A stretch of DNA of 64,000 nucleotides from Elusimicrobiota bacterium (GTDB lineage: Bacteria > Elusimicrobiota > Endomicrobiia > Endomicrobiales > Endomicrobiaceae), in contig JAFXOV010000003.1 in NCBI GenBank assembly GCA_017528425.1, positions 25,174-89,173 of the forward strand, read 5' to 3'. Both the position numbers and the translations under genes were made by a program. How positions within the stretch are numbered: the stretch's first letter is position 1; each line of letters starts with the position of its first letter. The notes below the pieces were generated by a model. That model had not been told where the DNA came from and made no database searches. It worked only from the letters and a program-made list of their open reading frames with translations. Of this stretch, positions 28,067 through 57,178 are shown in pieces.

Positions 28067-28092
28067 TTATTCTTTAAATAAACACTCCAAAA

Positions 28093-28977: not shown

Positions 28978-29264
28978 ACGGAACACAATTAAAAAAACTG
29001 TTTATACTTACGTTAGTTTGTTTCATTTGTTATTTTATTGTCATCGGACAAATGAATAATAAATTGGTAAGCTTAAGAATAAAGATTACCGATCTTAAAG
29101 AAAATTACGATATATTGGAAAACAAATCCAATGCCATGAAAGCAGAAATAAAAGCATTGCTTTCCATAAAAAATCTTGAAAAAATTGCCAAAGAAAAAAA
29201 TTTTAATAAACCGACAAAAGAACAAAAAATAATAATACAAAATGATAAAGATAAAGAAGAGTAA
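28974..29264 (+). CDS. ftsL: FtsL-like cell-division protein
   Basis: 96 aa. One TM helix followed by a coiled coil. It lies between rsmH and ftsI with 4-nt and 23-nt overlaps. Confidence 0.6.
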   Translation: MNGTQLKKLFILTLVCFICYFIVIGQMNNKLVSLRIKITDLKENYDILENKSNAMKAEIKALLSIKNLEKIAKEKNFNKPTKEQKIIIQNDKDKEE

Positions 29265-32642: not shown

Positions 32643-32648
32643 TATAAA

Positions 32649-34055: not shown

Positions 34056-34056
34056 T

Positions 34057-35130: not shown

Positions 35131-35133
35131 AAA

Positions 35134-36468
35134 ATGGCAAAAAACAACGGCATCAAAATAACAGTGTTAGGTTTGGGAAAGTCCGGAATTGCATGTGCAA
35201 ACTTGGCAATATCAAAAGGTTATACTGTTTTTGCAAGTGACAGCGGCAAAGTAAGAACTCACAAACAAATGAAATTAAACAAGAAAGTTGAAGTTGAGTT
35301 CGGTAAACATTCTTTAAAAGTTCTTGAAAGTGACATAATAGTAAAAAGCCCGGGATTACCTAACGAGCTTGAAATTCTTAAACAGGCAAGAAAACAAGAA
35401 ATACCCGTTTTAAGCGAACTCGATTTTGCATTAAACTTCGCAAAACCTAAAAAAATAATTGCAGTTACGGGAACTAACGGTAAAACTACCACAACAACCT
35501 TAATTTACGAAATAATCAAAAAAGGATACAAAAACACATTTGTTGCAGGAAATATAGGGTTTCCGATATCAGAAGTTGTAACAAAACTAAACTCAAAATC
35601 TGTTTTGGTTTTGGAACTGTCTTCTTATCAACTTGAAGATTCCCCTCTTTTTAGGCCGAATATAAGTGTCAGCATGAACATTACTCCCGACCACTTAAAA
35701 CATCATCACACAATGGCAAACTATGTAAAAGCTAAAGCAAACGTGTTTATAAATCAAAATAAACAAGATTTTGCAATATACAACTATGAAGACAAATATT
35801 TAAAAAAATCCATTCTAAAAACAAAAGCGGTAAAGTTTGAATTTAATAACAACAAAACTAAAAACTGTATTTGTTTTAAAGACGGAACAATTTATTTAAA
35901 GAAAAATAACAAAACCGTAAAACTTAATCCTAAAATAAATATTCCGGGAAAACATAACATAGATAACATACTTGCTTCCGTTGCTGCAAGTTTTCTTGCA
36001 GGCACAAAAAAATCCGTAATTGAAAAAGTTATATCCGGATTTAAAGGTGTGGAACACAGGATAGAATTTGTAAAAGAAATAAACGGTGTAAAATATTATA
36101 ACGATTCTAAAGGAACAAATGTCGATTCCACAAAAGTTGCACTTGAATCGTTCGACAAAAATATTCAACTTATACTCGGCGGGCAAGATAAAGGAAGCCC
36201 GTATAAACCTATTGTTAATCTAATAAAGAAAAAAGTAAAAAATATATTTTTAATCGGTGAAGCAGCAGATATAATAAAAAAACAACTTAAAGGTTCCGCA
36301 CCTATGGTAGATTGTAAAACTTTATCGAACGCAATAAAAAAAATATATTCGGTAGCACAGAAAGGTGACATTGTTTTATTTTCCCCCGCATGTGCATCGT
36401 TCGACCAATTTAACGATTTTGAACATAGAGGCAGAGAATTTAAAAAATTTGTTTTAGCTATAAAATAA
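35134..36468 (+). CDS. murD: UDP-MurNAc-L-Ala--D-Glu ligase
   Basis: 444 aa. An N-terminal Rossmann fold (LGLGKSG), VTGTNGKTTT, and YNDSKGTN. Confidence 0.9.
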   Translation: MAKNNGIKITVLGLGKSGIACANLAISKGYTVFASDSGKVRTHKQMKLNKKVEVEFGKHSLKVLESDIIVKSPGLPNELEILKQARKQEIPVLSELDFALNFAKPKKIIAVTGTNGKTTTTTLIYEIIKKGYKNTFVAGNIGFPISEVVTKLNSKSVLVLELSSYQLEDSPLFRPNISVSMNITPDHLKHHHTMANYVKAKANVFINQNKQDFAIYNYEDKYLKKSILKTKAVKFEFNNNKTKNCICFKDGTIYLKKNNKTVKLNPKINIPGKHNIDNILASVAASFLAGTKKSVIEKVISGFKGVEHRIEFVKEINGVKYYNDSKGTNVDSTKVALESFDKNIQLILGGQDKGSPYKPIVNLIKKKVKNIFLIGEAADIIKKQLKGSAPMVDCKTLSNAIKKIYSVAQKGDIVLFSPACASFDQFNDFEHRGREFKKFVLAIK

Positions 36469-36469
36469 A

Positions 36470-37645
36470 ATGACTAACTTCTTTTTTAATAACAAAATCA
36501 TAAACGGATTAAAGAAAAATAAAGATGCGAGATTTCTTTCATATTGGACTTCTGGCCTGATTGTTATAGGTGTTTTAGCCGTTGCGTCATGCAGTGCCAT
36601 GGTAAGCATAAATTCTCCGTTCGACTGTATTTCAAAACATCTTATGAATATAGGTTTAGGGTTCGGTCTTTTTATTATTGCTTCTTTTTTTGATTACACA
36701 AAATACAGAAAATTTTCTTTTTTCCTTTTTATATTAACAACGGTATTATTGTTATCCACTATTTTTTTCAGAGAAATAAACGGTGCTCACAGATGGATAA
36801 ATCTCGGATTTTTTAATTTTCAACCGTCGGAAATGGCAAAACTTGTAATGATAATACTAATGTCGGACTTTCTTACCAGACACAAACATCATATAAACAC
36901 TTGGAACGCAAACGTTTTTCCGTGCGTATATTTAGGTGTATTTTGTTTTATTATTTTTATTATGCAAAGTGATTTAGGAACGGCTTTCTTACTTTTTGCT
37001 ATATGGTCATCACTTTTGATTGTAGCCAAAATAGATGTAAAACGAATGCTTTTAATTGTTTTAGCTTGTGTATTGGCTTTAGCTGTAGCAATAGCAATAA
37101 AACCTTACAGAAGAAAAAGAGTGTTAACTTATATCAAACCTGTCATTCAATATGTTATGAAAACAAATACTGCGGAAACTCCGCAATCAAAGGCAGAAAA
37201 AATTAAAAATTCCGATTCATATAATTCCGATATAGCTTTTGCAGCCTTCGGATCCGGCGGTTTAACAGGCAAAGGTGCGGGCAAGAGCGATACAAAATTG
37301 AGATACTTACCTGAAAAACATACCGACTATATTTTTCCTATTATAGGCGAAGAGCACGGCCTTATAGGAACATTACTTACCGTCTTTCTTTTTATTATGT
37401 TCACAAAAACGGCTCTGAATATTAACAGTAAATGTAAAGATGAGTTTGGGAAATATTTATCTTTAGGAATAATTTTAACCATAACCGGACAAGCTATCAT
37501 CAATATGGGTATGACTACAGGCATTTTACCGTCTAAGGGAATACCTCTGCCTTTTATTTCTTACGGAGGTTCGGCAATGCTTATAAATTGTTATATGGTA
37601 GGAATACTCGTTAATATTGCAAGGAGCAACAGCAGATTATTATGA
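36470..37645 (+). CDS. ftsW: SEDS-family peptidoglycan polymerase FtsW
   Basis: 391 aa, polytopic. Motifs FQPSEMAKL, HTDYIFPIIGEE and SKGIPLPFISYGGS. Confidence 0.88.
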   Translation: MTNFFFNNKIINGLKKNKDARFLSYWTSGLIVIGVLAVASCSAMVSINSPFDCISKHLMNIGLGFGLFIIASFFDYTKYRKFSFFLFILTTVLLLSTIFFREINGAHRWINLGFFNFQPSEMAKLVMIILMSDFLTRHKHHINTWNANVFPCVYLGVFCFIIFIMQSDLGTAFLLFAIWSSLLIVAKIDVKRMLLIVLACVLALAVAIAIKPYRRKRVLTYIKPVIQYVMKTNTAETPQSKAEKIKNSDSYNSDIAFAAFGSGGLTGKGAGKSDTKLRYLPEKHTDYIFPIIGEEHGLIGTLLTVFLFIMFTKTALNINSKCKDEFGKYLSLGIILTITGQAIINMGMTTGILPSKGIPLPFISYGGSAMLINCYMVGILVNIARSNSRLL

Positions 37646-38733
37646 AAAATATACTTATTGCAGTCAGTGGTACAGGCGGACACGTTTATCCCGGAATAGC
37701 ACTCGCTTATGAATTGAAACAAGCAGGATATCATCCTGTTTTTATAGTGAACAATAATAAGAACGGTGTATCATTACAAATTGTGAGCAATTCCGGTTAC
37801 GATTATGAACTGTTGGATTTTAAAGCTCCTCCGAGAAAAATATCGCTGGATTTATTTTTGTTCCCGTTCAAACTTATTAAAACATTGTTTGCGGCAAAAA
37901 AAATATTGAACAAGTTTTCGCCCGTGGCAGCGGTAGGGATGGGCGCATACTTATCCTTCCCTATATTACTTATAGCAAAAATAAAAAAGATACCTACACT
38001 TATTCACGAACAAAATTCCATTCCGGGACTCGCAAACAAATTATTATCTAAGATAGTTACAAAAGTTGCCGTAAGTTTTCAAGGATCCGAAAAATATTTC
38101 AACAAAAAGAAAACAATATTTACTTCTAACCCGATAAGAAAAGACATTTTTAATATTTCAAGAACTGAAGCGGCAAACAAATTAAATCTTGATGCCGATA
38201 TTTTCACAATTTTTATTTTCGGCGGAAGTTTAGGCGCAACAAAGCTGAACAATATTATGTTCAATGTTAACGAATATTTATTTAATCGACATAAAGGTAA
38301 AATACAATTTATACATATTACGGGAAACAACGATTTCGAATCATTAGATAACAAATACAAAAAACTTAATACAAAAAAGTTTATAACAAAATATATGAAC
38401 GATATAGGAAATGCTTATGCCTGCAGCGATTTGTTGGTTTGCAGAGCAGGAGCGGGAACGGTAAAAGAAGTAGAAAATTACAATTTGCCGGCACTGTTTA
38501 TACCTTTCCCTTATGCTACCGACAATCATCAATACTTCAATGCAAAATCGGTAGAAATACCGAATTTCAGAATTGTTATAGAAGAAAAAAATATTACCGA
38601 ACAAGAAATAATAAAATTTATCGAACAATACATATCTAATGTCATAGATGTTACCAGAGTAGTTACTCCGGAATATTTCCCTCAGGAAATATTGGCTAAA
38701 GAGGTTATAAAATTAGCAAATGAAAAAATATAA
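37642..38733 (+). CDS. murG: UDP-GlcNAc--lipid I GlcNAc transferase
   Basis: 363 aa. N-terminal GTGGHVYPGIALA and C-terminal CRAGAGTV.E. Confidence 0.9.
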   Translation: MKNILIAVSGTGGHVYPGIALAYELKQAGYHPVFIVNNNKNGVSLQIVSNSGYDYELLDFKAPPRKISLDLFLFPFKLIKTLFAAKKILNKFSPVAAVGMGAYLSFPILLIAKIKKIPTLIHEQNSIPGLANKLLSKIVTKVAVSFQGSEKYFNKKKTIFTSNPIRKDIFNISRTEAANKLNLDADIFTIFIFGGSLGATKLNNIMFNVNEYLFNRHKGKIQFIHITGNNDFESLDNKYKKLNTKKFITKYMNDIGNAYACSDLLVCRAGAGTVKEVENYNLPALFIPFPYATDNHQYFNAKSVEIPNFRIVIEEKNITEQEIIKFIEQYISNVIDVTRVVTPEYFPQEILAKEVIKLANEKI

Positions 38734-39469
38734 TATTTTAATATCAAACGACGACGGAATAAACGGACCGGGCTTAAAACCTTTGATGAAAGAGTTATCT
38801 TCTTTCGCAAATATTTATGTTATTGTTCCAAAACACGAAATGTCGGGAACAAGCCATTCGATACATTTGAAGAAATGGTTAAAACTCGAAAAAAACAAAA
38901 ATAATATTTATATTCTTGTAGGCGGAACACCTGCAGACTGTGTAAAATATGCGCTATATTCTTTTTTTAAGGATAAAATAGATTTGGTTGTAGCCGGAAT
39001 AAATACGTGTGCGAACCTTGCACAAGACGTTGTTTATTCTGGAACGGTTGCTGCCGCAAGAGAAGGGGCATATTTGGGAATACCGTCAATGTCTGTTTCG
39101 GCAAGCGACGAACAAAACCCTTGTTATGAACAAACAGCCAAAGCTGCTTTAAAAATAGCAAAAACAGTATTAAAGAAAGAAAAGAAGGGGGGCAGACCTG
39201 CATTATGTTTAAATATTAATATTCCCCCCAATTATAAGGGAATAAAGGTTGTTCCTTTGGGAATAAGATGCTACGATGAAAGTGTTATAGAAAAGAAAAC
39301 AAAAAAAGGAACATACTTTAAACTTGCCGGAAGATTCATTTCCGGTAAAAAGAATAAAAAGTCTGATATTGATGCCATAGAACAGGGATACATATCGGTT
39401 ACTCCGTTGGAACTCGACCAAACCGGTTTTTCAAAAATCAAAACCTACAAAATTTTAGAAAGAATTTAA
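38720..39469 (+). CDS. surE: 5'/3'-nucleotidase SurE
   Basis: 249 aa. Motifs ILISNDDGINGPGL, GTPADCV and SGTVAAAREG. Confidence 0.88.
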   Translation: MKKYNILISNDDGINGPGLKPLMKELSSFANIYVIVPKHEMSGTSHSIHLKKWLKLEKNKNNIYILVGGTPADCVKYALYSFFKDKIDLVVAGINTCANLAQDVVYSGTVAAAREGAYLGIPSMSVSASDEQNPCYEQTAKAALKIAKTVLKKEKKGGRPALCLNINIPPNYKGIKVVPLGIRCYDESVIEKKTKKGTYFKLAGRFISGKKNKKSDIDAIEQGYISVTPLELDQTGFSKIKTYKILERI

Positions 39470-40185
39470 AAAGTAGCTCTCGCTAACGTTACCACTATAC
39501 ACTTACTTTTTAAATTTTTTAGTACTTTTGCGCATTGATTCGCAGTGCTACACGTCGTTGCAATATCATCAATCAAAAGAATTCTCTTATTCTTTATCGT
39601 ATCCACATACTTTTTATTTATCTTAAATATATCTTCCAAATTTTCTTTTCTCTGTCCTTTTCTAAGGTTAAATTGCGGTTTAGTATATTTTGTTCTAATC
39701 AAAGCATTACACATCGATTTATTGATAATTTTTGCAACATTTTCCGCCAACAATTCCGCTTGATTGTATCCCCTTCTCCACTTTTTAAACCAATGCATCG
39801 GAACAGGAACGACAACATCTATATCTTTATCGATACTCTCTTTTACTATAAATTTTGCAAGTTCCGCAGCCAAATCTTTTGCCAAAAATTGTTTTCTCGA
39901 ATATTTTAAATTCTTTATCAACTTTTTCATTTGAGTCGAATAAGTGTAAGGTGCTTTTAAAACTTCAAAATAAATATCTTTGTTGCTTTTACAATCCGAA
40001 CAGGTTGCTCCCCCGTCGGGTAACGGCAACGAACATTTATGACAAATCAATCCTTCCAATTTAGGAATGTTTTCCAAACAATTATTACAAATGTTTTGTT
40101 CCGAAGAAAACGGCAGCGTTTTCCCGCACAATGAACACGTTCTCGGGAACAAGATTGATGTAATAAAATTTAAAATTTTTTTCAT
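39466..40185 (-). CDS. comF: ComF-family protein (zinc-finger N-terminus plus phosphoribosyltransferase domain)
   Basis: 239 aa. Four CxxC pairs at the N-terminus and the PRT motif ILLIDDIATTCST. Its stop overlaps the surE stop inside TTTAAA. Confidence 0.8.
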   Translation of the reverse strand: MKKILNFITSILFPRTCSLCGKTLPFSSEQNICNNCLENIPKLEGLICHKCSLPLPDGGATCSDCKSNKDIYFEVLKAPYTYSTQMKKLIKNLKYSRKQFLAKDLAAELAKFIVKESIDKDIDVVVPVPMHWFKKWRRGYNQAELLAENVAKIINKSMCNALIRTKYTKPQFNLRKGQRKENLEDIFKINKKYVDTIKNKRILLIDDIATTCSTANQCAKVLKNLKSKCIVVTLARATF

Positions 40186-40186
40186 T

Positions 40187-43100
40187 TTAGAATTGTATCG
40201 TCAACTTACTTGAAAGTTCTATATTTGTATAATTTTGTTCGGGAACATAAGTGTATAAATATCTTGAAAAACTCGTTCCTAACGCAAATCTGAAGTTCTT
40301 GGATATTTCGTAATCTCCCGCCAATTTAAACCCGAAATTTTGATAGTTTGCAGCTTCTACATCTACCGCAGAACTTTGAGTATTGTAAAACACATTGGAT
40401 TCAAACAATAATCTGTTTTTCAACGGTATATTTCCTATCAAAGGAAGTTTTATGCCAGTCGGGAACAACAAATCCGAAGTTGCTTGACCGTTAACTGCGT
40501 TAGAGAAAACTTGTGATGCAAGATTACCTTCAGAATTTTTGGACCAATTTTGAGAATTGTCGTATCTCAAACTGAATCTCCACTGCTTAACATTTGTAGC
40601 AATCTGAACAGCCCAATTGGTTATCTGACCTTCCTGTTTTAAAACATTTTCTTCCTTATCGTATTCCTGATTTTTTGTAACATCCGCGGATAAAAACAAA
40701 TCATACTTTTTGATAACTTTTAACTTATAATCTCCGCCGAACATAATGCTGTCACCGTACGAAACACCTGCAACCGTAGTAGTTTTCTTATTGTATTTTA
40801 AATTAAGTTGTGTATCGCTCATCCAACTTTGTCCGAACAATTTTTCAAATCTGCTCATACCGATAAGGATATCCGGCCAAGTTTTTGTATAAGAATCCTT
40901 TGTGGTTCCGGTATTATACGATTCTTCTTCTCCGTCGGTAAATGTAAAGCTCATGGTCATTGTTTTTATCGGCATAAGTTTACCTTTAAAATCGAACGCT
41001 TCAAACGGATTATATCTTCCTATAATTCTTCTATCGTCTCTTTTTAATACCGTTTTAACAGTATAAGATGACGTTGAATATACCGGCTGTATTTCTTTTA
41101 AAAGGTTATCTCTTATCCATAATTTATTGGTGGCAATACCTACGGAAGAAAAGCCTTTTTCCACATTGGTATAAGAATCGGAATCCTGCATTCTGTAAGA
41201 CGTAGTGAAGGTTAAACTTCTTAAATATTTGCTGTTAAAGATATCTCTTGCCTGAAGATTCCATGTAAATTCCGTTGTCCCGACTCTGTCTATTGCCTTT
41301 TTTTCTCCAGGATAAACTTTATTTACAGATGCACTGCTATAAGTTAAATCATAAGTTTCCACGGTATTCAAACTGTAAATAATATTCGGTTGAAACCATT
41401 TTGCGACTTTAAAATTCAAACTTGCACCGATATCCTGATTTAAAGATTTATCATAAAAAATTTCTTCGTTTTCAAAATATTCTTTATTTTTTTCATTAAC
41501 TCTTGTAATAACGTAAGCAGGAGAAAATATAACTTTATCATAGAAAGAGAACGGTGCTTTAAGGCCCCAAGTTTCGGTTTTTTCCAACGTTAAGAAATCT
41601 TCCACTTCCATATATTTTCTCATTGTATCCAAATCTAAGAAAGCATTAGTATCTTCTATTTTTTCCGTCGGATAAATTTTGTATGCGGAATTACTTATTC
41701 TGTAATCTCCCACAAGACTTGTAGGTAAGAAATCAAAATCTATCGGATTTAAATAAACCATGTTAGCGGAAATAGTTTCTTTATCTTCAAGTCGTTCTAT
41801 ATTTTCCGTGTCTTTAATGAACCTGTTATATTCCAATGTGAATTTAGGTAAATCCGTTCCCGCGGATAAAACGGTATTAACATTTCCGCTATACGAAATA
41901 ACTTTACCTTCATCCAAAACAGAAACTTGGTCGGATGTATTTTGTAATGCAAGAGGTGTAACGGTTTTTGTTTTTGTTAACGATGCATTAATCGGTAAAA
42001 CTTGTGTTCCTGCTATTTCGATACCTTTAAATTCAAGGTCTGCATAATCTTCCAATAATTCTCTGTCGTAAGTTCCAGGTGCGAAAGTTTCAAAATCTTT
42101 ATCTATTCCCTTCCTATGCAAATTAACATTTAAAGCACCAATTGCTCCCCTGCCTGCCCAGTTTATACTAAAATCTGTTTTCCAGGCATTACCGTCTTTA
42201 CTTTTTGCATCTGTAACATGAATTTCGTTCACCCAAATTTCACCTGTGTCTGCTCCGTTTGTTTTTACACCGGTTTCAATGAACGCAACTTTTTGCAGAC
42301 TCGGTTCACCTTTCGGTATGATTGTAGCTCTCGGATCAACAGCAACCCATTCCGTTGTTGCTCCATACCCTTTCTGTTTAATTTCCAAGACGTTCCATTT
42401 TCCTTTCATATCATCAGTTATCGGAATAGAATATTCGAAATAATTGTTTTCGTCTCCACCGACTCTCATTATGAAATTACTTTCTTCCGGACTTACCGCG
42501 GTAGTACTTGCAATATACAAGAAGAATTTAAACTTTTCATAATTTGATAAATCAAATCCGGAACTATAAGTTGTTCTCGCAAAAAATTCGTCGCCGCCTG
42601 TACTCGAATCGTAACTTATGGCTAATGCTTGTTCATCTCTTTTAGAGTCACTGTCTATATCGTACAAATCTCTATAATATGAGTTCGTTAAAAGGGAAAC
42701 ATATTGCGGGTTATCTCTTCCTATAGAAAATATTTCACTGGTGCTAAAAGAATCACTTTGTTCTTTAGTCCACTTATTTCCGACAACGGCAATTTTACCT
42801 ATCGTCATTTTACCTTTATCATAAAAACCAGATACTCTGTTAACAGTTAATCTTGTAACTCTTATGTTTTTCCACTTTTCTTTGTCGGCATCGGATGTAA
42901 TATCCAACGGAATTTGTATTCTTTGCCAACCGGTTTTTGTAATATCGGCATACTCTTCCAAATTAAAGTTTGTAAGATTTACATCAGCCAAATCCAAACG
43001 ATTGTTACCGTTTAAATCTTCAGTATCGAGTCTGCCGTTATTTGCACCGATTTTAGATATTCCGTAAGCGGCAGTTTTGTTTGTAAAATCTCTACCTATA

Positions 43101-45736
43101 TCTTCCCAGGGACTTATTATTCCGTCTCCGTTTTTATCTTCTGTATCCAAAACATAGTTCTGATCGGAATCTTCATTCATTGCAGAAGCTAAATCAAGAC
43201 GAACATTTACCTGTGCAAAGTTTGCTTTTATCCAAATTTCCAAATACAACTTTTTTGAAAAATCGTAACCTGCCACAGATACGACTTGACCTATAGAGGC
43301 ATAATCACAAACAGACATATCATAATTTATATCCATAACCTGCTGTTTTTCGCCCGATATAATTTCCAAATTTTTGTCTATATCTTTTTTTTCTATATCG
43401 TAGTTTCTCCAAGTTATTGCATTCGTATCATATTCTGCATATATACCGTTAGGTGTTGATGCATAAAACCAATTATCGTCTATCAAAGAAAAACTGTCAT
43501 CCTGTTTTGCACTTTCCATAGATTCTATTATTGCTTTACCTGTAGTGTTTTGAATATATTTACTCATAGCATATTCCGCATTTGCGGATATGCTTAAGCT
43601 ATCCGTTATTTTTACATTTTTTACTTTTGCATCAACTTCACCTACAAGCGTACTTGACGGAGCGGAATATATATCCGGAAGTTTTGTATCTTCTGCGGCA
43701 AACTCATAAATAAAACTTCCTCCCAAAGAAATATTATCCGTAAAATCATATTGAGATCTCACTCCTACAAGAGTCGAGCCTGACGATGCTCCTCCCAACG
43801 GAGAATAATCGTAAGAAACATCTATAACGGTATCGTTGTTAATATATTCATCTTTTAAAATCGTCAATATACCGACATCGTAATCCAGCATATAGTCTTC
43901 ATTTATCTTCAAAGTTTTACCGTTTGCAACAACTTTTTCCGACATAGGAACAATACCTGTTCTTAAATTAAAAATTTTAATTTTATACTCGTATTGAACA
44001 ACAAAGTTGTATTTATGTGTATTTGATGTATATAAATCATCGTGTAACGGTTTACCTGTTATAGGTTGCAAATTGAATACACCGTTATCAAAATCTACGA
44101 TAATATTTGAATCATATCCGTCTATATTCGGAAATTTCGGAACATGTTTTCCTCCTTCTATGGAAGAAGGAATCGTATCATTTAAATCTCTGACTTCCAA
44201 TATAAAATTATCTCTGCCGTTATATTTTGTAATTTGATAGTTGCCTATGCTGTAAAAAGTATGCACTTCCGTAGATAGAGCATCGGTATTATCCGTATCC
44301 TTAATTACTTGAGGATTTCCCCCTGTTGAATCCGACAACCAAGTGCCATCCGTATATTGGTAATCGATAGCAACAACATACTGATTAGATAAAGTATTTT
44401 TAAATGTAATTATACCGGTAGTATAATCTATGGTATAGTCCGTTCCTGCCGTAAGTTTAATAAAATTACCTTTATATACTTTGGACAAATCTTTCATATA
44501 ATGCAATTCCGTATCGTCTCTTATTACGACATAATCACTGATGGTAGTTTTTATTTTATCCAAATACACTTTTGCGGAATCATTTTTTATTTTTTTAGAA
44601 GGATCACTGATAATGGAATAATATTTATATTTTATATACGAAGTATCGGATATAATTTTTTTCTCCATTTTACTGCTTCCTTTAAACTGTTTGCTTTCGG
44701 AATAACCCTTTGTTTTAGAGAAAAAGAATTTCGTTTTTAATCCCTTATATTGAGTATCAACTTTAGCACCGAACAATTCTTTTGAATATCCCGAAAATTC
44801 GGTACTCGGCAAATCAACATTAATATCACCGAAAGCGGCTTCTCTTACAAATTCGTTTCCTTTTCCCTTATAAAGAATATAAATATCTTTTTTATCTTCT
44901 TGTGTATCATCGAAATCAACATTTAATTCAAGCCTGTCTCCGACAGTACCTTTTATTTTCATTTGCAATTCTTGTTCCATGGAAAAGTCCGAAGAATTTG
45001 ATCTTTTACCGGACTCTTCATTATCATAAATCGTTCCGGAATAATTTACGCCTATCATTTTTCTTCCGGATAACAACAACTTAGAATCAAAAGGTAATTT
45101 ATCCATCATTTTTTTTGCAAAAGATTTTGCCTTATCGTCTTCTTTTTGTTTTTCTTCCGTTTCTTGTTTTCCTTTATTCTCTTCTTTTTTTGAAACAGGC
45201 TCAACAGTTGCCGTTGTTGTTGATTGATTAACATCGGCTGCCGTATCGGTAGATTTATTAAGATTTAATTTGTCTAAAACTTTTTCTCCTGCAATACCCA
45301 TTGCTGTTGTTGTAGGCAAATTCAAATCATAATTTGCTGTATTTTGCGGCTTTTCAACAATTGCACCCGAAGAATAATATGTCCCCAAATCGTTTTCATC
45401 CGGAATAACGGTCATCGAAGAAACAACAATATCTTTATTTTCTTTTACTTCCTTGTATTTTAAAGGTTTGGTAATATCAATAGCTTGTGTATTACTTGAA
45501 ACATTTACTGTATCCGTAGATATGTTTACTTGTGCCGTATCCGTAGAAACACTTATTGTGTCTGTAGATATATTTACTTGTGATGTATTTGTGGAAATAT
45601 TTACCGTGTCGGTAGAAGTTACAATTTGAGAATTTGTATTATCCGTTGCGGTTTCACTGCTTACGGAAACAACATCTTCCGCAAACATGTATACCGAACA
45701 AAACAGAAAAATAATTATCAAAAATATTTTTTTCAT
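40187..45736 (-). CDS. Giant (1849 aa) predicted outer-membrane beta-barrel protein, tentatively SprA/Sov-like
   Basis: Signal peptide MKKIFLIIIFLFCSVYMFA. S/T-rich 8-aa repeats and a K/E linker. Alternating beta-strand patterns run throughout, with an OMP-type C-terminus ..IELSSKLTIQF. The block aa 255-375 (EQELQMKIKGTVGDRLELNVDFDD...ILYKG...FGDINVDLP...ELFGAKVDTQYKGL...FFFSKTKG) parallels the SprA N-terminal pattern as I remember it. Confidence 0.85.
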   Translation of the reverse strand: MKKIFLIIIFLFCSVYMFAEDVVSVSSETATDNTNSQIVTSTDTVNISTNTSQVNISTDTISVSTDTAQVNISTDTVNVSSNTQAIDITKPLKYKEVKENKDIVVSSMTVIPDENDLGTYYSSGAIVEKPQNTANYDLNLPTTTAMGIAGEKVLDKLNLNKSTDTAADVNQSTTTATVEPVSKKEENKGKQETEEKQKEDDKAKSFAKKMMDKLPFDSKLLLSGRKMIGVNYSGTIYDNEESGKRSNSSDFSMEQELQMKIKGTVGDRLELNVDFDDTQEDKKDIYILYKGKGNEFVREAAFGDINVDLPSTEFSGYSKELFGAKVDTQYKGLKTKFFFSKTKGYSESKQFKGSSKMEKKIISDTSYIKYKYYSIISDPSKKIKNDSAKVYLDKIKTTISDYVVIRDDTELHYMKDLSKVYKGNFIKLTAGTDYTIDYTTGIITFKNTLSNQYVVAIDYQYTDGTWLSDSTGGNPQVIKDTDNTDALSTEVHTFYSIGNYQITKYNGRDNFILEVRDLNDTIPSSIEGGKHVPKFPNIDGYDSNIIVDFDNGVFNLQPITGKPLHDDLYTSNTHKYNFVVQYEYKIKIFNLRTGIVPMSEKVVANGKTLKINEDYMLDYDVGILTILKDEYINNDTVIDVSYDYSPLGGASSGSTLVGVRSQYDFTDNISLGGSFIYEFAAEDTKLPDIYSAPSSTLVGEVDAKVKNVKITDSLSISANAEYAMSKYIQNTTGKAIIESMESAKQDDSFSLIDDNWFYASTPNGIYAEYDTNAITWRNYDIEKKDIDKNLEIISGEKQQVMDINYDMSVCDYASIGQVVSVAGYDFSKKLYLEIWIKANFAQVNVRLDLASAMNEDSDQNYVLDTEDKNGDGIISPWEDIGRDFTNKTAAYGISKIGANNGRLDTEDLNGNNRLDLADVNLTNFNLEEYADITKTGWQRIQIPLDITSDADKEKWKNIRVTRLTVNRVSGFYDKGKMTIGKIAVVGNKWTKEQSDSFSTSEIFSIGRDNPQYVSLLTNSYYRDLYDIDSDSKRDEQALAISYDSSTGGDEFFARTTYSSGFDLSNYEKFKFFLYIASTTAVSPEESNFIMRVGGDENNYFEYSIPITDDMKGKWNVLEIKQKGYGATTEWVAVDPRATIIPKGEPSLQKVAFIETGVKTNGADTGEIWVNEIHVTDAKSKDGNAWKTDFSINWAGRGAIGALNVNLHRKGIDKDFETFAPGTYDRELLEDYADLEFKGIEIAGTQVLPINASLTKTKTVTPLALQNTSDQVSVLDEGKVISYSGNVNTVLSAGTDLPKFTLEYNRFIKDTENIERLEDKETISANMVYLNPIDFDFLPTSLVGDYRISNSAYKIYPTEKIEDTNAFLDLDTMRKYMEVEDFLTLEKTETWGLKAPFSFYDKVIFSPAYVITRVNEKNKEYFENEEIFYDKSLNQDIGASLNFKVAKWFQPNIIYSLNTVETYDLTYSSASVNKVYPGEKKAIDRVGTTEFTWNLQARDIFNSKYLRSLTFTTSYRMQDSDSYTNVEKGFSSVGIATNKLWIRDNLLKEIQPVYSTSSYTVKTVLKRDDRRIIGRYNPFEAFDFKGKLMPIKTMTMSFTFTDGEEESYNTGTTKDSYTKTWPDILIGMSRFEKLFGQSWMSDTQLNLKYNKKTTTVAGVSYGDSIMFGGDYKLKVIKKYDLFLSADVTKNQEYDKEENVLKQEGQITNWAVQIATNVKQWRFSLRYDNSQNWSKNSEGNLASQVFSNAVNGQATSDLLFPTGIKLPLIGNIPLKNRLLFESNVFYNTQSSAVDVEAANYQNFGFKLAGDYEISKNFRFALGTSFSRYLYTYVPEQNYTNIELSSKLTIQF
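45482..45631 (-). repeat. Tandem ~21-27 nt coding repeats (STDTxxVNI units) at the N-terminus of the giant OMP
   Basis: The peptide reads TSTDTVNISTNTSQVNISTDTISVSTDTAQVNISTDTVNVSSNTQ. The DNA shows repeated gtagatat(a/g)tttac / ccgtagaaac units. Confidence 0.8.
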
Positions 45737-45742
45737 TATTAA

Positions 45743-47359
45743 CTATTGAGCCAAAACTTTTGCATTTTTGTATTTTATATCTTTTTCATTTACAAACCAC
45801 TGATAAAAATTCCATCCTATACCTGCCGGAGCAAGTTCTACATTATTAAACCTTTTATGAACACAAACAAGGTTTTCCGGATAATATAAAAATATGCACG
45901 GCGGATCTTCTCTCATAATGTCTTGAATTTTATGGTAACATCTGATTCTTTCTTCTTTATCAAATGTTGTCCTTGCTTTTACCAACAAATCATCAACTTC
46001 GTTATTTTTGTAAGACATAAAATTGTATTGCCCTAACCCGCATTGCGAAGAATGCCACAAGGAAAACTGGTCGGGATCAATTGCAGTATTCCACCCTAAA
46101 ATAAGAGCATCAAAATTCTTTTTGTTCACATATTGGTTTAAGAATGTGCTCCATTCCAAAATTCTTATATTAACCGTAAGACCTATTTTTTTCAATTGTT
46201 CCTGTATGATTTGAGCCGTTAACTCTCTTGATTTGTTACCTTGATTGGTAATTATGTTTATTTCAAAATCTTTATTATTATAAAGTAATTTATCGTCCGG
46301 AGATTTGCTGAAACCTATAGAGAGCAAAAGTTCCAAAGCTTTTTCGGGATTATACTCATAAGGTTCTACTTCTTTATATGCCCAAGACTGCGGCGGAAAT
46401 ATTCCCCATGCGGTTTTTGCCATATCGGATAATACTCCCTTTATGATATCTTTTTTATCTATTGCATAAGATACTGCTTGTCTGAACTTGATATTATTGT
46501 AAGGTTCTTTTTCCAAATTAAATCCTAAAAAAGTGAACCCGAAAGACGGATAACGATACTTATCATAATTTTTGAAGAAAGAATCATACGCATTCCATTG
46601 ATCCGGAGTTAAAGAAAGTTCATCGATAGTTTCTGTTCTTAACTCCAAAAATTGAACCGATTGGTCCGGTATTACTCTAAACAAACAAACTTTTATTTTT
46701 GGAACACCTTCATAATAATTGGGATTAGCTTCCAAAACTATTTTTTGGTCTGTCACCCACTTTTTGAAAATATATGGCCCCGTACCTACCGGTTTTCTGT
46801 TATATTCGGACGTATTTATATCTTCATTTCTGAAAATATGTTCCGGAATTATACCTATACACCAACTTTCAAGTATCGGAGCAAAAGGTTGTTCGTAAGT
46901 GACAATAAAAGAATAATCATCTAACACTTCGAAATTCTTTACCATCAAATAGTCGGAAGAAAAAGGTGTTCTTGTATTCGGATCTGTCAATTTATCAAAC
47001 GTAAATTTAACATCTTTAACGGTAAACGGTTCCCCGTCGTGCCAAAATATATTTTTCTTTAAGTTAAACTTTATCTGTAATCCGTCTTGTGACACCTGAT
47101 AACTTTCCGCCAAATCGCAAACCAAATTTAAATCTTTATCGTATTTCAACAGTCCGTTATATATGTAAGAATTAACCGACGAGGATGCAGAATCCGAAGC
47201 TAAAACCGGATTCAAGAATATTGCATCCCCTATAGAAGACACAACATACATATCTTTTGAGACTGTATTATCGGTATAGTCGGTCAATTTATTTTCGTTA
47301 TTACAAGATAACAGCAAGACCGAGAAAAACAATAAAAAAATAAATTTTTTTAACTTCAT
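45743..47359 (-). CDS. Family-5 (peptide/nickel, OppA/DppA-type) solute-binding lipoprotein with no cognate permease or ATPase nearby
   Basis: 538 aa. Lipobox LLLSC at aa 15-19. The length and motifs (FNLKKNIFWHDGEPFTVKDVKFTF, ANPNYYEG) are typical of SBP_bac_5. It ends 6 nt upstream of the giant OMP gene. Confidence 0.85.
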   Translation of the reverse strand: MKLKKFIFLLFFSVLLLSCNNENKLTDYTDNTVSKDMYVVSSIGDAIFLNPVLASDSASSSVNSYIYNGLLKYDKDLNLVCDLAESYQVSQDGLQIKFNLKKNIFWHDGEPFTVKDVKFTFDKLTDPNTRTPFSSDYLMVKNFEVLDDYSFIVTYEQPFAPILESWCIGIIPEHIFRNEDINTSEYNRKPVGTGPYIFKKWVTDQKIVLEANPNYYEGVPKIKVCLFRVIPDQSVQFLELRTETIDELSLTPDQWNAYDSFFKNYDKYRYPSFGFTFLGFNLEKEPYNNIKFRQAVSYAIDKKDIIKGVLSDMAKTAWGIFPPQSWAYKEVEPYEYNPEKALELLLSIGFSKSPDDKLLYNNKDFEINIITNQGNKSRELTAQIIQEQLKKIGLTVNIRILEWSTFLNQYVNKKNFDALILGWNTAIDPDQFSLWHSSQCGLGQYNFMSYKNNEVDDLLVKARTTFDKEERIRCYHKIQDIMREDPPCIFLYYPENLVCVHKRFNNVELAPAGIGWNFYQWFVNEKDIKYKNAKVLAQ

Positions 47360-47365
47360 TATATT

Positions 47366-47722
47366 TTATAACTTGCTCCATTTTTGTTTTCCTTCTCTTA
47401 ACATGTTGGCACTTACCCCATCTTTTTTCAAGTGAGGATTATATTCACCACCCATATCATGCATCGCGGCTTTCCAATTTTTACTTGAATAAACGGAATT
47501 GTTATACTGTTTTATTCCGGGCAAATTATTGAACCAATTTTTAAATTTCGTCCAACCCGCTTTCACCGATGTTGTAAATCTTACAACTGCCGGTTTATGC
47601 ATAAATTTATCGTATGCTCTTTCTATTTTTTGAGTAACAGATAATTCTTCCGCATAAATTTTATTAGTTCCGACAATACAAAACAAACTGCACAATACAA
47701 AAAACAACACAAGTTTTTTCAT
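47366..47722 (-). CDS. Small secreted hypothetical protein (Lys/Trp-rich)
   Basis: 118 aa with a signal peptide MKKLVLFFVLCSLFCIVGTNKIYA. It sits tightly (6 and 13 nt gaps) between operon neighbours. Confidence 0.55.
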   Translation of the reverse strand: MKKLVLFFVLCSLFCIVGTNKIYAEELSVTQKIERAYDKFMHKPAVVRFTTSVKAGWTKFKNWFNNLPGIKQYNNSVYSSKNWKAAMHDMGGEYNPHLKKDGVSANMLREGKQKWSKL

Positions 47723-47735
47723 TTTATTCCCCCTT

Positions 47736-49811
47736 TTATACTCTTTCTAAATTTTTTTTAAAATCTTTATCTACAACAAAATTATACTTCTCTGCTTTTT
47801 CAACATCTTTTTTTGCTAAATCATATTTATTTAACAAATACCACACAGCTGATCTTTTAAAATAATACTCCCCGTTATCTCTATTTAGTGTAGTAGCCAT
47901 CGTATAACACATTAATGCTTTCTCATAATACTCTTCCAACGCAAAAACATTTCCCAACAAAAAATAACTAAAACTGTCGAAATAATCAAAATTAGAAACT
48001 AACAAATTTTGTACATCATCATATCTTTCATTTTCAAAAAAATATGCTGCTAATTTGTTAAGTATATCTGTTTTGTTATCTGCATTTTGCAGCCCTTCAA
48101 ATGCAGTCTTTTCAAAATTTACAAAATCCTTATTTTTCTCATATATCGTCATCAACTGAATATAATATGTTTCTTCAAAAGGATTCAATGTCACAGCTTG
48201 TTTCATGTTTTCTATTGCTTTATAGATATTGTTTTCTTTATAATAGAGCTGTGCCAATGTGGCAAAAAAATATCCCGGAACAAAAAAACTTGCTTTTTCT
48301 TTTTTCTTCTCCATAAAAGATAATGCTTTTTGCGTTTTACCTTCAATATCCAATATGATACCAATGTTATTTATTGCGGCTATATAGTTAACATTTGTAT
48401 ACGGAATACAAGAATAATATTTTTTTGCCTGCAAATATTCTTTTTGTTCTTGTTTTAACTGTCCAAGCCGAAAAACGGTATATGCATTAATTTTATTTAA
48501 CGAATAACTCTTTTCTATATCTTTTTCGGCTAAATTAAACTTACCTTGGTTTTTATATATAATACCTCTCAACAAATAAGCCTCGGATGCACTATCCGGA
48601 GCATAATTTACGGCTTCCGTTATTAATTTTTCGTTATCCGACCACAATATACTTCTTTGATAAGTTAAATATACAAAACTTGACCCTATAACAAATAAAG
48701 CAAAACAAACGATTATTTTTAAAATTTTGTTTCTCTTATACATACTAAACAACAATTCAGCAACCATAAAAGACAAACCTATATACGGAATATAAGTATA
48801 TCTGTCTGCTACCGGAGCAATTCCGGTAGACAAAATACCGCTTGAAGGCAATAATGTTATTAAAAAGAAAAAGAAACCAAAAAATATTTTTTTGTTTATT
48901 TTCAAACTCAATGTAACAAAAAGAATCAACAAATATAATATCGTTGCCGAAAAAAATATAAAAGCCGGAGTAAGTGTATTATGATTATAAAAATTAGGAT
49001 ACAGACACGATAAATTTATAGGCAAGAAAAATTTGTATATATAAAATAAGCAATAAAAATGAGCATCGAAGAAATTCATACATCTTACAAAAATTGTAGT
49101 AATTGCTTTTTCCTGCTCGGAATAATGTCCGGAAACAGCAACATACGAAAAAATAAGCATTATGACAAAAAACGGTATATATTTTCTCAAAAAAGTTGTC
49201 GTAACTTTGAGCTTGTTATTATAAAAATCAACCAACATAAGAATTATCGGTAAAGTTACTGCCGTAGGTTTAGACAAGCAAGAGAAAATAAAAAGAATTA
49301 TCGATAAATAATATAAATTTTTCCCTTTTTTTATTTCATAAGATTTTATATAGACAAGAAGAGACGATAAGAAAAAGAACGAAAACAAAGTATCTTTTCT
49401 TGCCGTAACCCAAGCTACAGGTTCGACATGAACCGGATGCAATGCAAAAACAAATGCGGTAAAAAATCCCACAAAGAAAGATTTCGACAGTAGTTTTATT
49501 ATATAAAACACCAACAACGTATTCAGCAAATGTAAAATAATATTATCCACATGATATAAATACGGATCTATTTTGCAAATCGAATATTCTATTGCATAAG
49601 ACAGTATAACCATAGGGTTATATAAGCCATATTGATAAGAAGAAAATATACGCTTTATGTTATCCAAAGATAAGCTTCTAATATCCTGATTATTCACAAC
49701 CATAGCGGTATCATCGAGATTTATAAAGCCGGATGTAATCGATGGATAAAAAGATAATATCACAATATACGACAAAAATATTAAGAATAATATTTGATAT
49801 TTTTTTATCAT
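47736..49811 (-). CDS. Polytopic GT-C-like (PMT/TMTC/DUF1736-like) membrane protein with C-terminal TPR repeats
   Basis: 691 aa. About 10-11 TM helices. The first-loop acidic motif GFINLDDTAMVVNN is followed by YNPMVILSYAIEY...YHVDNIILHLLN. The C-terminal ~300 aa are TPR-like. Confidence 0.7.
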   Translation of the reverse strand: MIKKYQILFLIFLSYIVILSFYPSITSGFINLDDTAMVVNNQDIRSLSLDNIKRIFSSYQYGLYNPMVILSYAIEYSICKIDPYLYHVDNIILHLLNTLLVFYIIKLLSKSFFVGFFTAFVFALHPVHVEPVAWVTARKDTLFSFFFLSSLLVYIKSYEIKKGKNLYYLSIILFIFSCLSKPTAVTLPIILMLVDFYNNKLKVTTTFLRKYIPFFVIMLIFSYVAVSGHYSEQEKAITTIFVRCMNFFDAHFYCLFYIYKFFLPINLSCLYPNFYNHNTLTPAFIFFSATILYLLILFVTLSLKINKKIFFGFFFFLITLLPSSGILSTGIAPVADRYTYIPYIGLSFMVAELLFSMYKRNKILKIIVCFALFVIGSSFVYLTYQRSILWSDNEKLITEAVNYAPDSASEAYLLRGIIYKNQGKFNLAEKDIEKSYSLNKINAYTVFRLGQLKQEQKEYLQAKKYYSCIPYTNVNYIAAINNIGIILDIEGKTQKALSFMEKKKEKASFFVPGYFFATLAQLYYKENNIYKAIENMKQAVTLNPFEETYYIQLMTIYEKNKDFVNFEKTAFEGLQNADNKTDILNKLAAYFFENERYDDVQNLLVSNFDYFDSFSYFLLGNVFALEEYYEKALMCYTMATTLNRDNGEYYFKRSAVWYLLNKYDLAKKDVEKAEKYNFVVDKDFKKNLERV

Positions 49812-49824
49812 AGCTTAATATTAT

Positions 49825-49854
49825 ATTTTACTAATTTTAGGCTTATTCTTGCAA
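49825..49854 (-). promoter_or_regulatory. Candidate promoter TTGCAA-N18-TAAAAT for the GT-C/giant-OMP operon
   Basis: -35 at 49849-49854 and -10 at 49825-49830 on the minus strand. Only 13 nt separate the -10 from the ATG at 49811 and there is no SD, so the transcript would be near-leaderless. This is pattern only. Confidence 0.3.
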
Positions 49855-49893
49855 AAAAAAGAGATATATTATATTTATATAATATATCTCTTT
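49853..49893 (-). terminator. Rho-independent terminator after lpxI
   Basis: A perfect 16-bp inverted repeat, AAAGAGATATATTATA (49858-49873) and TATAATATATCTCTTT (49878-49893), with a 4-nt loop. On the minus strand it is followed by T8 (49853-49860). Confidence 0.6.
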
Positions 49894-49921
49894 AACTCCA
49901 AAATATTGAAAAAAATTCAAA

Positions 49922-50722
49922 CTACATTGCAATAATCGTAACACCCGCTTGTTTTGCTTTTAATATTACATCTTCTTTATCCAATATCAAAGTGGAACCT
50001 GCTTCTATTATCATTGCTCTTATTTTATTGTTCTTTAAAGTATCTATTGTTCTTGTTCCTATTACGGGAACATCAAATCTGAAATCCTGGTTCGGTTTTG
50101 CAACTTTTACGACTATTGCATTTTCCCCGCCCAAAGAATACGCTCTTTTTATACATTCATCGGTTCCTTCTATAGATTCTACCGCCAACACGGATTTGTC
50201 TTTAACAACCACCGTTTGACCGATATCAAGTCCCGCAATAGCTTTTGCCATTTTAAAACCGAATTGCGCATCTTTATCTTCATCGGAATTTAATTTTTTA
50301 CCGACGATAACACCCTTTTGCGCAAGCAAATGCTGCAAATATATGTGCGAAGGTAAAAATTTTATACCGTCTTTTTCGAATTCTTTCACTACAGCTCCTA
50401 AAATTGTATCTGTTTTTTTGTTCACTAACGATGTCATTATTTTAAGAGCTCTTAAATCCATGGTTATTGCAGAATAAATTTTTGCATGTTTAACCTGTCC
50501 TACCATTATGGCAGTATCTACGTTTCTGCTTTTAAAAGCATCTATAATTTTTTGAATTTTGCCGACGGAAAGCCATACTGTTTCATCACAAAATTTTTCA
50601 ATATCTTTATCGGCTTCTTCTTTTAAAGCAACGGTAATAACCTTGTCTCCCTGTTTTTTTATTTCTTGAGCGACAAGAAAAGGAAATCTTCCGTTACCTG
50701 CAATCATTCCTATATTTTTCAT
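49922..50722 (-). CDS. lpxI: UDP-2,3-diacylglucosamine pyrophosphatase LpxI (DUF1009)
   Basis: 266 aa. The N-terminus IGMIAGNGRFPFLVAQEIKKQG and the motif D.GQTVVV.....AVE..EGTD are characteristic of LpxI. It follows lpxA. Confidence 0.8.
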   Translation of the reverse strand: MKNIGMIAGNGRFPFLVAQEIKKQGDKVITVALKEEADKDIEKFCDETVWLSVGKIQKIIDAFKSRNVDTAIMVGQVKHAKIYSAITMDLRALKIMTSLVNKKTDTILGAVVKEFEKDGIKFLPSHIYLQHLLAQKGVIVGKKLNSDEDKDAQFGFKMAKAIAGLDIGQTVVVKDKSVLAVESIEGTDECIKRAYSLGGENAIVVKVAKPNQDFRFDVPVIGTRTIDTLKNNKIRAMIIEAGSTLILDKEDVILKAKQAGVTIIAM

Positions 50723-50724
50723 AA

Positions 50725-51495
50725 TTATTTAGGTCTGCAAATTCCTCTTTGAGATTTCTTAATAAAATCTATTATATCTCGAACATAAAGTGAATTGCCT
50801 AATTCTTCCTCTATTTTTGCTACGGCATCATTTAACGTCAAATGAGATGCAAACAAGATTTTGTAAGCATGTTTTATATTTTCTATTTCAGCAATAGGTA
50901 CTCTTTTTCTCTTAAGACCTACCAAATTTAAACCGAACAATGTTGCTCTGTCTCCTTGTGCCTGCATGTAAGGAATTATATCCATACTTACCATTGATCC
51001 GCCACCGGTAACAACATTTTTACCGATTTTAACAAACTGATGAACTGCGGTAAGTCCACCCATAACAACTCCGTCACCGACTTCAACGTGTCCTGCAATT
51101 GCACAACAGTTTGCAATTATACAATTATCTCCCAAAATACAATCGTGAGCAACATGTGCACATGTCATAATAAGACAATTTTTACCGACAACCGTTTGTC
51201 CGCTTGCACTTGTTCCTCTGTTAATTGTTGCAAACTCTCTAACGGTTGTTCCGTCACCTATTATTGCAATTGTTTTTTCTCCGGCATATTTTAAATCTTG
51301 AGGAGGTGCACCTATTGATGCATGAGAAAATATTCTACAATTTTGGCCTATCTTTGCACATTCTATAGTTGCATGAGCACAGATAACCGTTCCGTCACCG
51401 ATTGTAACATTTTCTCCTATTACAACATAAGGACCTATTTCTACATTTTGTCCGATTACTGCAGATTTATCTATTATTGCTGTGCTATGTATCAT
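50725..51495 (-). CDS. lpxA: UDP-GlcNAc acyltransferase
   Basis: 256 aa. N-terminal MIHSTAIID.SA, hexapeptide repeats, and a C-terminal helical domain. Confidence 0.92.
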   Translation of the reverse strand: MIHSTAIIDKSAVIGQNVEIGPYVVIGENVTIGDGTVICAHATIECAKIGQNCRIFSHASIGAPPQDLKYAGEKTIAIIGDGTTVREFATINRGTSASGQTVVGKNCLIMTCAHVAHDCILGDNCIIANCCAIAGHVEVGDGVVMGGLTAVHQFVKIGKNVVTGGGSMVSMDIIPYMQAQGDRATLFGLNLVGLKRKRVPIAEIENIKHAYKILFASHLTLNDAVAKIEEELGNSLYVRDIIDFIKKSQRGICRPK

Positions 51496-51496
51496 A

Positions 51497-52846: not shown

Positions 52847-52848
52847 GA

Positions 52849-53871: not shown

Positions 53872-53885
53872 TTTGTCCTCTTATA

Positions 53886-57158: not shown

Positions 57159-57178
57159 CTTAAATATTATCCGTAAAA

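Follow-up and report, generated by a model that had tools for sequence, protein, structure and literature searches.

We consider here the gene that lies on the minus strand at positions 40187-45736 of a stretch of DNA of 64,000 nucleotides (called the window below, by which the whole stretch that was analysed is meant, with a G+C content of about 32%). The DNA comes from a bacterium of the rumen that belongs to the phylum Elusimicrobiota, in which a secretion system of type IX (T9SS) is undescribed so far. From the list of open reading frames (ORFs) and their translations, the gene starts with ATG and encodes 1849 residues, and from the ORF, the TIGR04189 model, a family profile and the Foldseek matches described below, the product is a giant outer-membrane barrel protein of the SprA/Sov family, belonging to a compact Elusimicrobiota subfamily. 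All parts of the protein are given with their positions on the minus strand. Residues 1-19 (MKKIFLIIIFLFCSVYMFA, 45680-45736), followed by EDVV, read in the translation as a typical Sec signal peptide. Next comes a Ser/Thr-rich low-complexity region of about 190 residues (residues ~20-210, 45107-45679), built partly from a 48-bp tandem repeat at 45498-45616; in an alignment of 31 family sequences, residues 20-213 contain zero conserved columns, the consensus being 'x' until the LPYES motif at residue 214. This is the place where SprA has its SkpA-binding N-terminus, and the alignment with SprA begins only at SprA residue 149. It is followed by a SprA_N-like conserved segment holding the first barrel strands (residues 214-375, 44612-45097), which has long strands in the structural model and where the invariant residues of the 31-sequence alignment cluster (F302-G303-D304, P310, F314 and F322-G323). 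Four long strands (residues ~654-728) and then the cap domains occupy 42251-43780, as delimited by DSSP, by structural matches to CBM11 and by the alignment with SprA; the caps comprise beta-sandwiches, a CBM11-like domain and two D-x-E-D-x-N-G motifs of the Ca-binding type (residues ~863-910). The C-terminal barrel region (residues 1163-1849, 40190-42250) has about 28 long beta-strands by DSSP and ends in ...KLTIQF, with F1849 invariant across the 31 homologues.

A preliminary description of this DNA, made from the letters alone, had ascribed to the protein a signal peptide, a beta-strand periodicity almost throughout, a terminal aromatic residue and a length about 25% below that of canonical SprA. 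The first and the third agree with the sequence features just given. The second agrees with the DSSP assignment of two AlphaFold models, where residues 205-1849 are almost wholly beta, and the fourth with the protein having 77% of the length of Flavobacterium johnsoniae SprA (2403 residues in the PDB), the TIGR04189 model having 2319 positions.

The homology to SprA/Sov is evident at the level of profiles. The NCBIfam equivalog model TIGR04189 (T9SS translocon Sov/SprA) matches the window protein in four stretches with E=2.1e-38 and 131.4 bits, yet the single sequence stays below the cut-off of 200 bits; the Pfam model PF14349 (SprA_N) has no match to the window protein at E<=1, while it is precomputed on some other members of the family. 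Thus, of the two profile searches that the preliminary description had proposed, the first gives a significant though sub-threshold match and the second gives none. The sole Pfam match of the protein, DUF2460, is taken as chance. With a profile of 31 family sequences, the only matches in the PDB are the F. johnsoniae SprA chains 6H3I_A and 6H3J_A, with E=3e-47, in two colinear blocks, profile positions 146-422 corresponding to SprA 149-539 and positions 506-1309 corresponding to SprA 698-1746. The DTEDLNGN motif of the window protein aligns with DVEDINRDN of SprA, the D-x-E-D-x-N loop being common to both. Moreover, hhalign against a 2343-residue protein bearing SprA_N gives a probability of 100% and E=5e-66. 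The order of SprA_N motifs that had been pointed out in the segment encoded by 44612-45094 (residues ~215-375) is recovered in a column-by-column alignment with F. johnsoniae SprA 149-250, which covers the motifs Q..i.l.GkvG.k..vn.dyD, Y, G.i.l.L.sT and LFG.K.

The protein is predicted to have the SprA fold. Two overlapping fragments, residues 650-1849 and 205-1200, were modelled with AlphaFold (AF2), each with a 69-sequence alignment, giving a mean predicted local distance difference test score (pLDDT) of 86.6 and 84.8, respectively. When the C-terminal fragment is searched against the PDB with Foldseek, the top four matches are SprA chains, 8GL8_A (5.5e-43), 8GL6_A, 6H3I_A and 6H3J_A, with E from 5.5e-43 to 4e-32 and a query TM-score (TMq) of 0.59-0.62. 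For the N-terminal fragment the four SprA chains also come first, 8GL6_A being the best (9.2e-45), with E from 9.2e-45 to 1e-28 and TMq of 0.44-0.52. The non-SprA matches have E>=8e-7 for the C-terminal fragment and E>=1e-5 for the N-terminal one, at least 35 orders of magnitude weaker, and include LptD, SusC and TonB-dependent barrels at a generic level and the CBM11 structures 1v0a and 6r3m for the cap domain. The Foldseek ranking therefore gives the fold of SprA, a very large single-chain barrel with capping inserts, and the structural match that the preliminary description had named as a check is found strongly in both fragments and with SprA only. Counted across the two separate fragment models, the long DSSP strands number 4-6 (residues 218-341) plus 4 (654-728) plus 28 (1163-1849), that is, 36-38, a predicted count that is compatible with, though no proof of, the 36 transmembrane strands of SprA (PMC10994853).

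In the alternative that the protein represents a new family of giant barrels with no relation to SprA, with the likeness of the N-terminal motifs arising by chance, one would expect what is indeed found with a single sequence: phmmer with the window protein against the PDB sequences matches nothing, and Pfam detects no SprA_N. Such a chance likeness would hardly extend over more than 1000 colinear positions at E=3e-47, and the hhalign match at E=5e-66 and the Foldseek matches at E of about 1e-43 to SprA only are equally against it. This alternative is refuted by the profile, hhalign and Foldseek matches, and we give it practically no credence. The window protein is a true homologue of SprA/Sov, and we hold the homology settled. 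The preliminary description had left two possibilities. That of a minimal SprA-type translocon is supported, as to the SprA type, by the profile (3e-47) and Foldseek (5e-43 and 9e-45) matches, and that of a new giant-barrel family is rejected.

Compared with F. johnsoniae SprA (6H3I, 6H3J, 8GL6, 8GL8) and Porphyromonas gingivalis Sov, the window protein shares the homologous conserved core with the same order of strands and cap inserts, the SprA_N segment, the D-x-E-D-x-N loop of the Ca-binding type and the same fold by Foldseek, and its family shares the genomic association with PorV/PorQ-family barrels and with proteins bearing a type A C-terminal domain (CTD). It differs in being about 550 residues shorter than SprA, a deficit made up of numerous small deletions and not of one lost domain, and in having a variable Ser/Thr-rich N-terminus of about 200 residues where SprA has a conserved SkpA-binding region. 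Within the Extended Translocon it is to this N-terminal extension of SprA that SprE and the SkpA trimer bind (PMC10994853). Further differences are the score below the TIGR04189 cut-off, the miss by PF14349, the synteny with lptF/lptG and a ComF-like gene, and the host phylum, which lies outside the Fibrobacteres-Chlorobi-Bacteroidetes (FCB) superphylum and in which no PorK/L/M/N is known.

A search of 5.8 billion proteins gives a coherent family of proteins of about 1700-1900 residues, with identities between 90% and about 27%, the named ones being from Endomicrobiaceae/Elusimicrobia; weaker homologues are proteins of 2000-2340 residues with SprA_N. An identical protein is present on a 164-kb metagenome scaffold. 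In a scan of one genome per GTDB species, seeded by an 8-sequence alignment, relatives were found in 187 species-level genomes, and the 80 that were kept are almost all Elusimicrobiota, of the classes Endomicrobiia and Elusimicrobia, the closest among these 80 being that of Candidatus Ruminimicrobiellum ovillum (84%). The homologues are annotated as 'hypothetical', with one UniRef name, that of the Endomicrobium proavitum protein, mentioning an SprA N-terminal domain. Seven contigs with SprA-like genes of the Elusimicrobiota type (L031, L047, L051, L053, L068, L082 and L089; loci of the comparison described below are labelled with L) carry the labels Ignavibacteria, Clostridia, Spirochaetes, Duodenibacillus or Eggerthellaceae, which probably reflects mis-binned or mislabelled content of metagenome-assembled genomes (MAGs).

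In the window the barrel gene is the last but one of a minus-strand run that reads, in the direction of transcription, bamA, lpxD, lpxC-fabZ, lpxA, lpxI, a polytopic membrane protein gene, a gene for a small secreted protein, an SBP_bac_5 gene, the barrel gene and a ComF-like gene. The first five, identified by Pfam (49922-56981), form an outer-membrane and lipopolysaccharide (LPS) biogenesis cluster that is tightly packed upstream on the same strand. BamA (53886-56981, minus strand) has 1031 residues and five POTRA domains, and lpxD comes immediately after its gene; no skp gene is found between bamA and lpxD in the window, which is of relevance since SkpA belongs to the Flavobacterium Extended Translocon. 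LpxC and FabZ are fused in one protein of 449 residues (51497-52846, minus strand). The polytopic membrane protein (47736-49811, minus strand) has many hydrophobic segments and C-terminal TPR repeats by Pfam matches, and its N-terminal half, judged by eye, is GT-C/PMT-like; at the equivalent place the FCPU426-type loci L006 and L007 have PMT/PMT_2 genes. The secreted protein (47366-47722, minus strand), of 118 residues and unassigned function, has a signal-peptide-like N-terminus and no family match, with its position conserved in the clade of the window. The SBP_bac_5 protein, a periplasmic solute-binding protein of the peptide/nickel type (45743-47359, minus strand; Pfam, 327 bits), is encoded 6 bp upstream of the barrel gene; this gene is clade-specific, lying directly upstream in the Ruminimicrobiellum and Proruminimicrobium loci, and an SBP_bac_5 gene is likewise near the barrel gene in L006 and L007. 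The ComF/GntX-like phosphoribosyltransferase with a double zinc ribbon (39466-40185, minus strand; Pfam DZR_2 and Pribosyltran, TIGR00201) begins 2 bp past the barrel gene. A promoter and terminator scan of 39000-57500 performed no better than with shuffled sequences and is uninformative on the operon structure. Among the scanned ORFs of at least 100 residues in the window no T9SS family was found, and hidden Markov models (HMMs) built locally for the PorV-like proteins and for the CTD gave nothing in the window either, in agreement with the statement in the preliminary description that it holds no porK/L/M/N, porV or other T9SS gene.

In order to compare the neighbourhoods in relatives, all ORFs of 89 loci and of the window were clustered. 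The genes lptF and lptG lie divergently at most 4 kb upstream of the SprA-like gene in 57 of the 69 loci with enough flank, and the ComF-like gene is the next one downstream in 62 of 84 loci, usually after a gap of few bases (median 44 bp). E. proavitum, three more contigs of Elusimicrobiota and the loci of the type of candidate phylum FCPU426 all have this layout; the exceptions are the FCB-type loci and the clade to which the window belongs. A typical island has the order TPR lipoprotein, PorV-like, M6-CTD, lptG and lptF (both reversed), SprA-like, ComF-like, and genes for CTD cargo and PorV/PorQ are in the same island as the barrel gene in 18 loci or more. The gene order has probably in part just been inherited, because the ComF-like, GAPDH and PGK genes are equally conserved neighbours, and we know of no functional link between a competence-type phosphoribosyltransferase and an outer-membrane translocon. 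The FCPU426-type SprA-like proteins (P0102 and P0107, 2074-2142 residues) share the divergent lptG-lptF, the phosphoribosyltransferase/ComF-like and SBP_bac_5 genes nearby and the adjacent CTD proteins; they differ in being longer, in having an fn3 insert, in that some reach PF14349, and in having a PMT-type glycosyltransferase gene between lptFG and the barrel gene. Two other arrangements were observed. At L008:16408-21321 an FCB-type SprA (2099 residues, PF14349) has a Por_Secre_tail cargo of 2568 residues before it and, immediately after it, lipid-transport genes of the MlaD-, MlaE- and ABC-ATPase-like kinds; this is the second case in which genes of outer-membrane lipid transport adjoin one for SprA. 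In E. proavitum (L001:16669-25313) two autotransporter genes (PF03797), each of about 1110 residues, lie just downstream of the SprA-like/ComF pair.

The clustering of the loci brings out three more genes that are conserved upstream. The first encodes a PorV/PorQ-family barrel, for which the NF033709 (PorV_fam) model, with a cut-off of 90 bits, scores 50-57 bits in the commonest form, 131 and 139 bits in the L045 and L055 forms, and 89.1 bits in a PorQ-like form of 299 residues (L090). A profile of the PorV-like proteins matches only PorV (6H3I_F) in the PDB, with E=6e-12. Most of the PorQ-like homologues are annotated as 'hypothetical', with 1 of 64 (a PGAP entry) named 'PorV/PorQ family protein'. 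Also conserved upstream is an M6 metalloprotease with an intact HExxH and a T9SS type A CTD ending in ...G(V/I)Y(L/F)...K..K.A(V/I)IR. The TIGR04183 model (cut-off 23 bits) gives 32.5 bits for the M6 protein of L013, 26.1 for L006 and 29.0 for a GH81 protein of L090, PF18962 is precomputed on many M6 homologues, and the local CTD HMM matches 91 of 120 homologues. This HMM, built from Elusimicrobiota, also finds the Por_Secre_tail cargo beside the FCB-type SprA and the CTD proteins beside the FCPU426-type barrel. For the M6 protein whose gene comes directly after a PorQ-like gene, the PorZ CTD model gives 44.6 bits versus 20.8 bits for the generic TIGR04183, and the PorU and PorZ models matched it in the CTD regions only. 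The third conserved gene, which adjoins that of the PorV-like barrel, encodes a lipoprotein (cluster c12) about 290 residues long, in which the G-C lipobox is invariant and TPR is matched once, at a generic level; it is a candidate for a small SprE-like partner.

The carriers and the cargo can be tied to the barrel gene within the same genome. In L013 and L014, of a sister genus, PorQ-like and M6-CTD genes lie 6-7 kb from the SprA-like gene. In the window's clade, locus-tag prefixes place the SprA-like IKN42_05110, which is 81% identical to the window protein, in one MAG with the PorQ-like IKN42_05470, and further pairs of this kind are II816_02935 with II816_05175 and PHR82_05985 with PHR82_05955. 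These links are stronger same-genome evidence than the 361-kb contig L090, where a PorQ-like gene lies directly before an M6-CTD gene and the tie to the window is the sample-naming style of the metagenome series only. Thus a PorV/PorQ-family carrier in the same genome and CTD-bearing cargo are both found in relatives, and neither is found in the window. The PorQ-like gene directly upstream of the gene of a CTD-bearing protein resembles the PorQ-PorZ and PorV-PorU pairs of P. gingivalis; unlike in those pairs, the passenger is an M6 metalloprotease instead of the PorZ beta-propeller or the PorU C25-type sortase, no sign of the LPS attachment chemistry is seen, and the CTD would presumably be retained. 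The contig L090 (L090:1-1462 and L090:17462-21166) also encodes a protein of 8373 residues without a Pfam match, a response regulator, a protein of 302 residues without assignment and the GH81 protein mentioned above, the C-terminus of which matches the type A sorting model with 29 bits and the type B model weakly.

The company of the barrel gene could also be read in another way, namely that the SprA fold has been reused for outer-membrane or LPS biogenesis (LPS-linked export or insertion) or as a general large-pore channel, the PorV-like and CTD genes being coincidental. It is consistent with this that lptF/lptG precede the barrel gene in most loci, extending to the FCPU426-type ones, that in the window the gene shares a strand-run with bamA, lpxD, lpxC/fabZ, lpxA, lpxI and the GT-C/TPR protein, and that an FCB-type SprA stands beside Mla-like lipid-transport genes. 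The CTD cargo and PorV/PorQ genes, however, share the island with the barrel gene in the 18 or more loci noted above and co-occur with it in the same MAGs, and the synteny is in part inherited order, as the equally conserved ComF-like, GAPDH and PGK genes indicate. The LptD chains match the model with E of about 3e-5 to 1e-3 and TMq of 0.13-0.16, a generic barrel similarity, and no LptD family of Pfam or NCBIfam matches the window protein. Because the PorV/PorQ-like and CTD genes share the island and the similarity to LptD is generic, the idea of an LptD replacement is downgraded, and we consider a role in LPS or outer-membrane biogenesis quite unlikely. The divergent pairing with lptF-lptG and, in the window, the position behind bamA-lpxD-lpxC/fabZ-lpxA-lpxI suggest that the barrel gene may be co-regulated with LPS export and outer-membrane biogenesis. 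In P. gingivalis the T9SS cargo is anchored to anionic LPS.

We propose that the window protein serves, with good probability, as the translocon in a T9SS-like pathway that is reduced and lies outside the FCB superphylum. The barrel most likely does the job of SprA as a Sec-dependent outer-membrane translocon, and the gene association points to the exit of CTD-bearing enzymes through it with PorV/PorQ carriers. In such a pathway the CTD-bearing cargo would cross the inner membrane by Sec and enter the periplasmic mouth of the barrel, its CTD would be caught by the loops of a PorV/PorQ-like carrier docked at the lateral opening of the barrel, and the cargo would then leave sideways to the cell surface. 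The M6 protease would probably stay tethered to the PorQ-like partner, as PorZ does on PorQ, which fits because its CTD scores better with the PorZ CTD model and because its gene is paired with a PorQ-like gene.

Several points weigh against this proposal. In addition to the TIGR04189 score below the equivalog cut-off and the lack of a PF14349 match, no partner gene (PorV/Q, CTD cargo or motor) is present in the 64-kb window, and the most conserved neighbours, lptF/lptG and the ComF-like gene, are not T9SS genes. As the barrel was modelled in two fragments, its closure, strand number and lateral opening are presumptive. PorK/L/M/N, PorU, PorT and SprE were not found around the loci, no genome-wide search having been made. 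TXSScan detected neither a T9SS nor any other kind of secretion system in Elusimicrobium minutum Pei191 and TG1 Rs-D17 (PMC4793230, Table S3). Finally, in F. johnsoniae the substrates stay trapped on SprA without the GldLM motor or SprE/SkpA (PMC10994853).

It is possible, though doubtful, that the missing parts do exist, the Elusimicrobiota genomes having a complete canonical T9SS with PorK/L/M/N, PorU/Z, PorT and an equivalent of SprE/PorW elsewhere, too divergent for the standard models. The barrel itself does not reach the thresholds of Pfam and NCBIfam and the PorQ-like proteins are mostly 'hypothetical', so other divergent components could be missed in the same way, and the c12 TPR lipoprotein adjoining the PorV-like gene could be the small SprE-like partner. 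Against such a complete system, the TXSScan profiles (GldK/L/M/N, PorU/V/Q, SprA/E/T) are empty in the two Elusimicrobia genomes covered, none of PorK/L/M/N (the GldL/GldM motor and GldK/GldN ring), and no other such gene, lies within 10 kb on either side of the barrel in the loci examined, and nothing conserved corresponds to the N-terminus by which SprA binds SkpA. The T9SS-like pathway proposed here looks reduced in these very respects, being without the SkpA-binding N-terminus, without motor or ring genes near the loci and negative in TXSScan. A more specific proposal, which we make tentatively, is that Elusimicrobiota and FCPU426, a candidate phylum close to it, carry a motor-less proto-T9SS consisting only of a compact SprA, PorV/PorQ carriers, a small TPR lipoprotein and few CTD enzymes, which would be coupled genetically to LptFG, the exporter of LPS, and function with no PorK/L/M/N. 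The motor-less state is put forward as a hypothesis; since release in F. johnsoniae needs the motor and SprE/SkpA, a motor-less SprA would need a different release mechanism. If this proposal is true, it would mean that lateral release by SprA-PorV predates the recruitment of the proton-driven motor and can work without it, and that secretion of the T9SS type was not invented within the FCB superphylum. Were the motor really lacking, the pathway would be a natural minimal system, usable to test substrate release from the SprA translocon.

According to reviews, genes of the T9SS occur only in Bacteroidota and some other phyla of the FCB group (PMC11285876; also PMC4793230), and the TXSScan survey places Elusimicrobia among the genomes without a recognisable secretion system (PMC4793230). 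A search of the literature for work linking Elusimicrobia to T9SS, type IX or SprA gave no relevant result. A T9SS-like system in Elusimicrobiota as such appears undescribed in the literature searched, with single pieces having been touched by automatic annotation; what is new here is a compact SprA subfamily in a phylum outside FCB, together with carriers and cargo and so far with no motor seen. A phylum-wide set of compact SprA, carriers and CTD enzymes would extend T9SS-type secretion to another phylum and would give a function to a very large 'hypothetical protein' of Elusimicrobiota from the rumen, the termite gut and groundwater.

Housekeeping genes make up the remainder of the window, with the division and cell wall (dcw) cluster, rpoD, dnaG, a Bat-like operon, tatC and RNase P RNA. 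The Bat-like operon (1698-11852, minus strand) encodes a MoxR-type AAA ATPase (10857-11852), a protein of 295 residues, an LB_053-family protein, BatA- and BatB-like VWA proteins, a BatC-like TPR protein, a protein of 880 residues with Sel1/TPR repeats and one of 598 residues without a family match. A Cas4-like PD-(D/E)XK nuclease is encoded at 17597-18361 (minus strand), with 48.8 bits for TIGR00372, below its cut-off of 65, and no other CRISPR-associated family has a match among the scanned ORFs of the window. A class A RNase P RNA lies at 27735-28067 (plus strand), with a score of 101.4 versus a gathering score of 100, and tRNA-Gln(TTG) lies at 62486-62558 (minus strand). The dcw cluster (28093-38733, plus strand) is complete, consisting of mraW, ftsI, murE, murF, mraY, murD, ftsW and murG.

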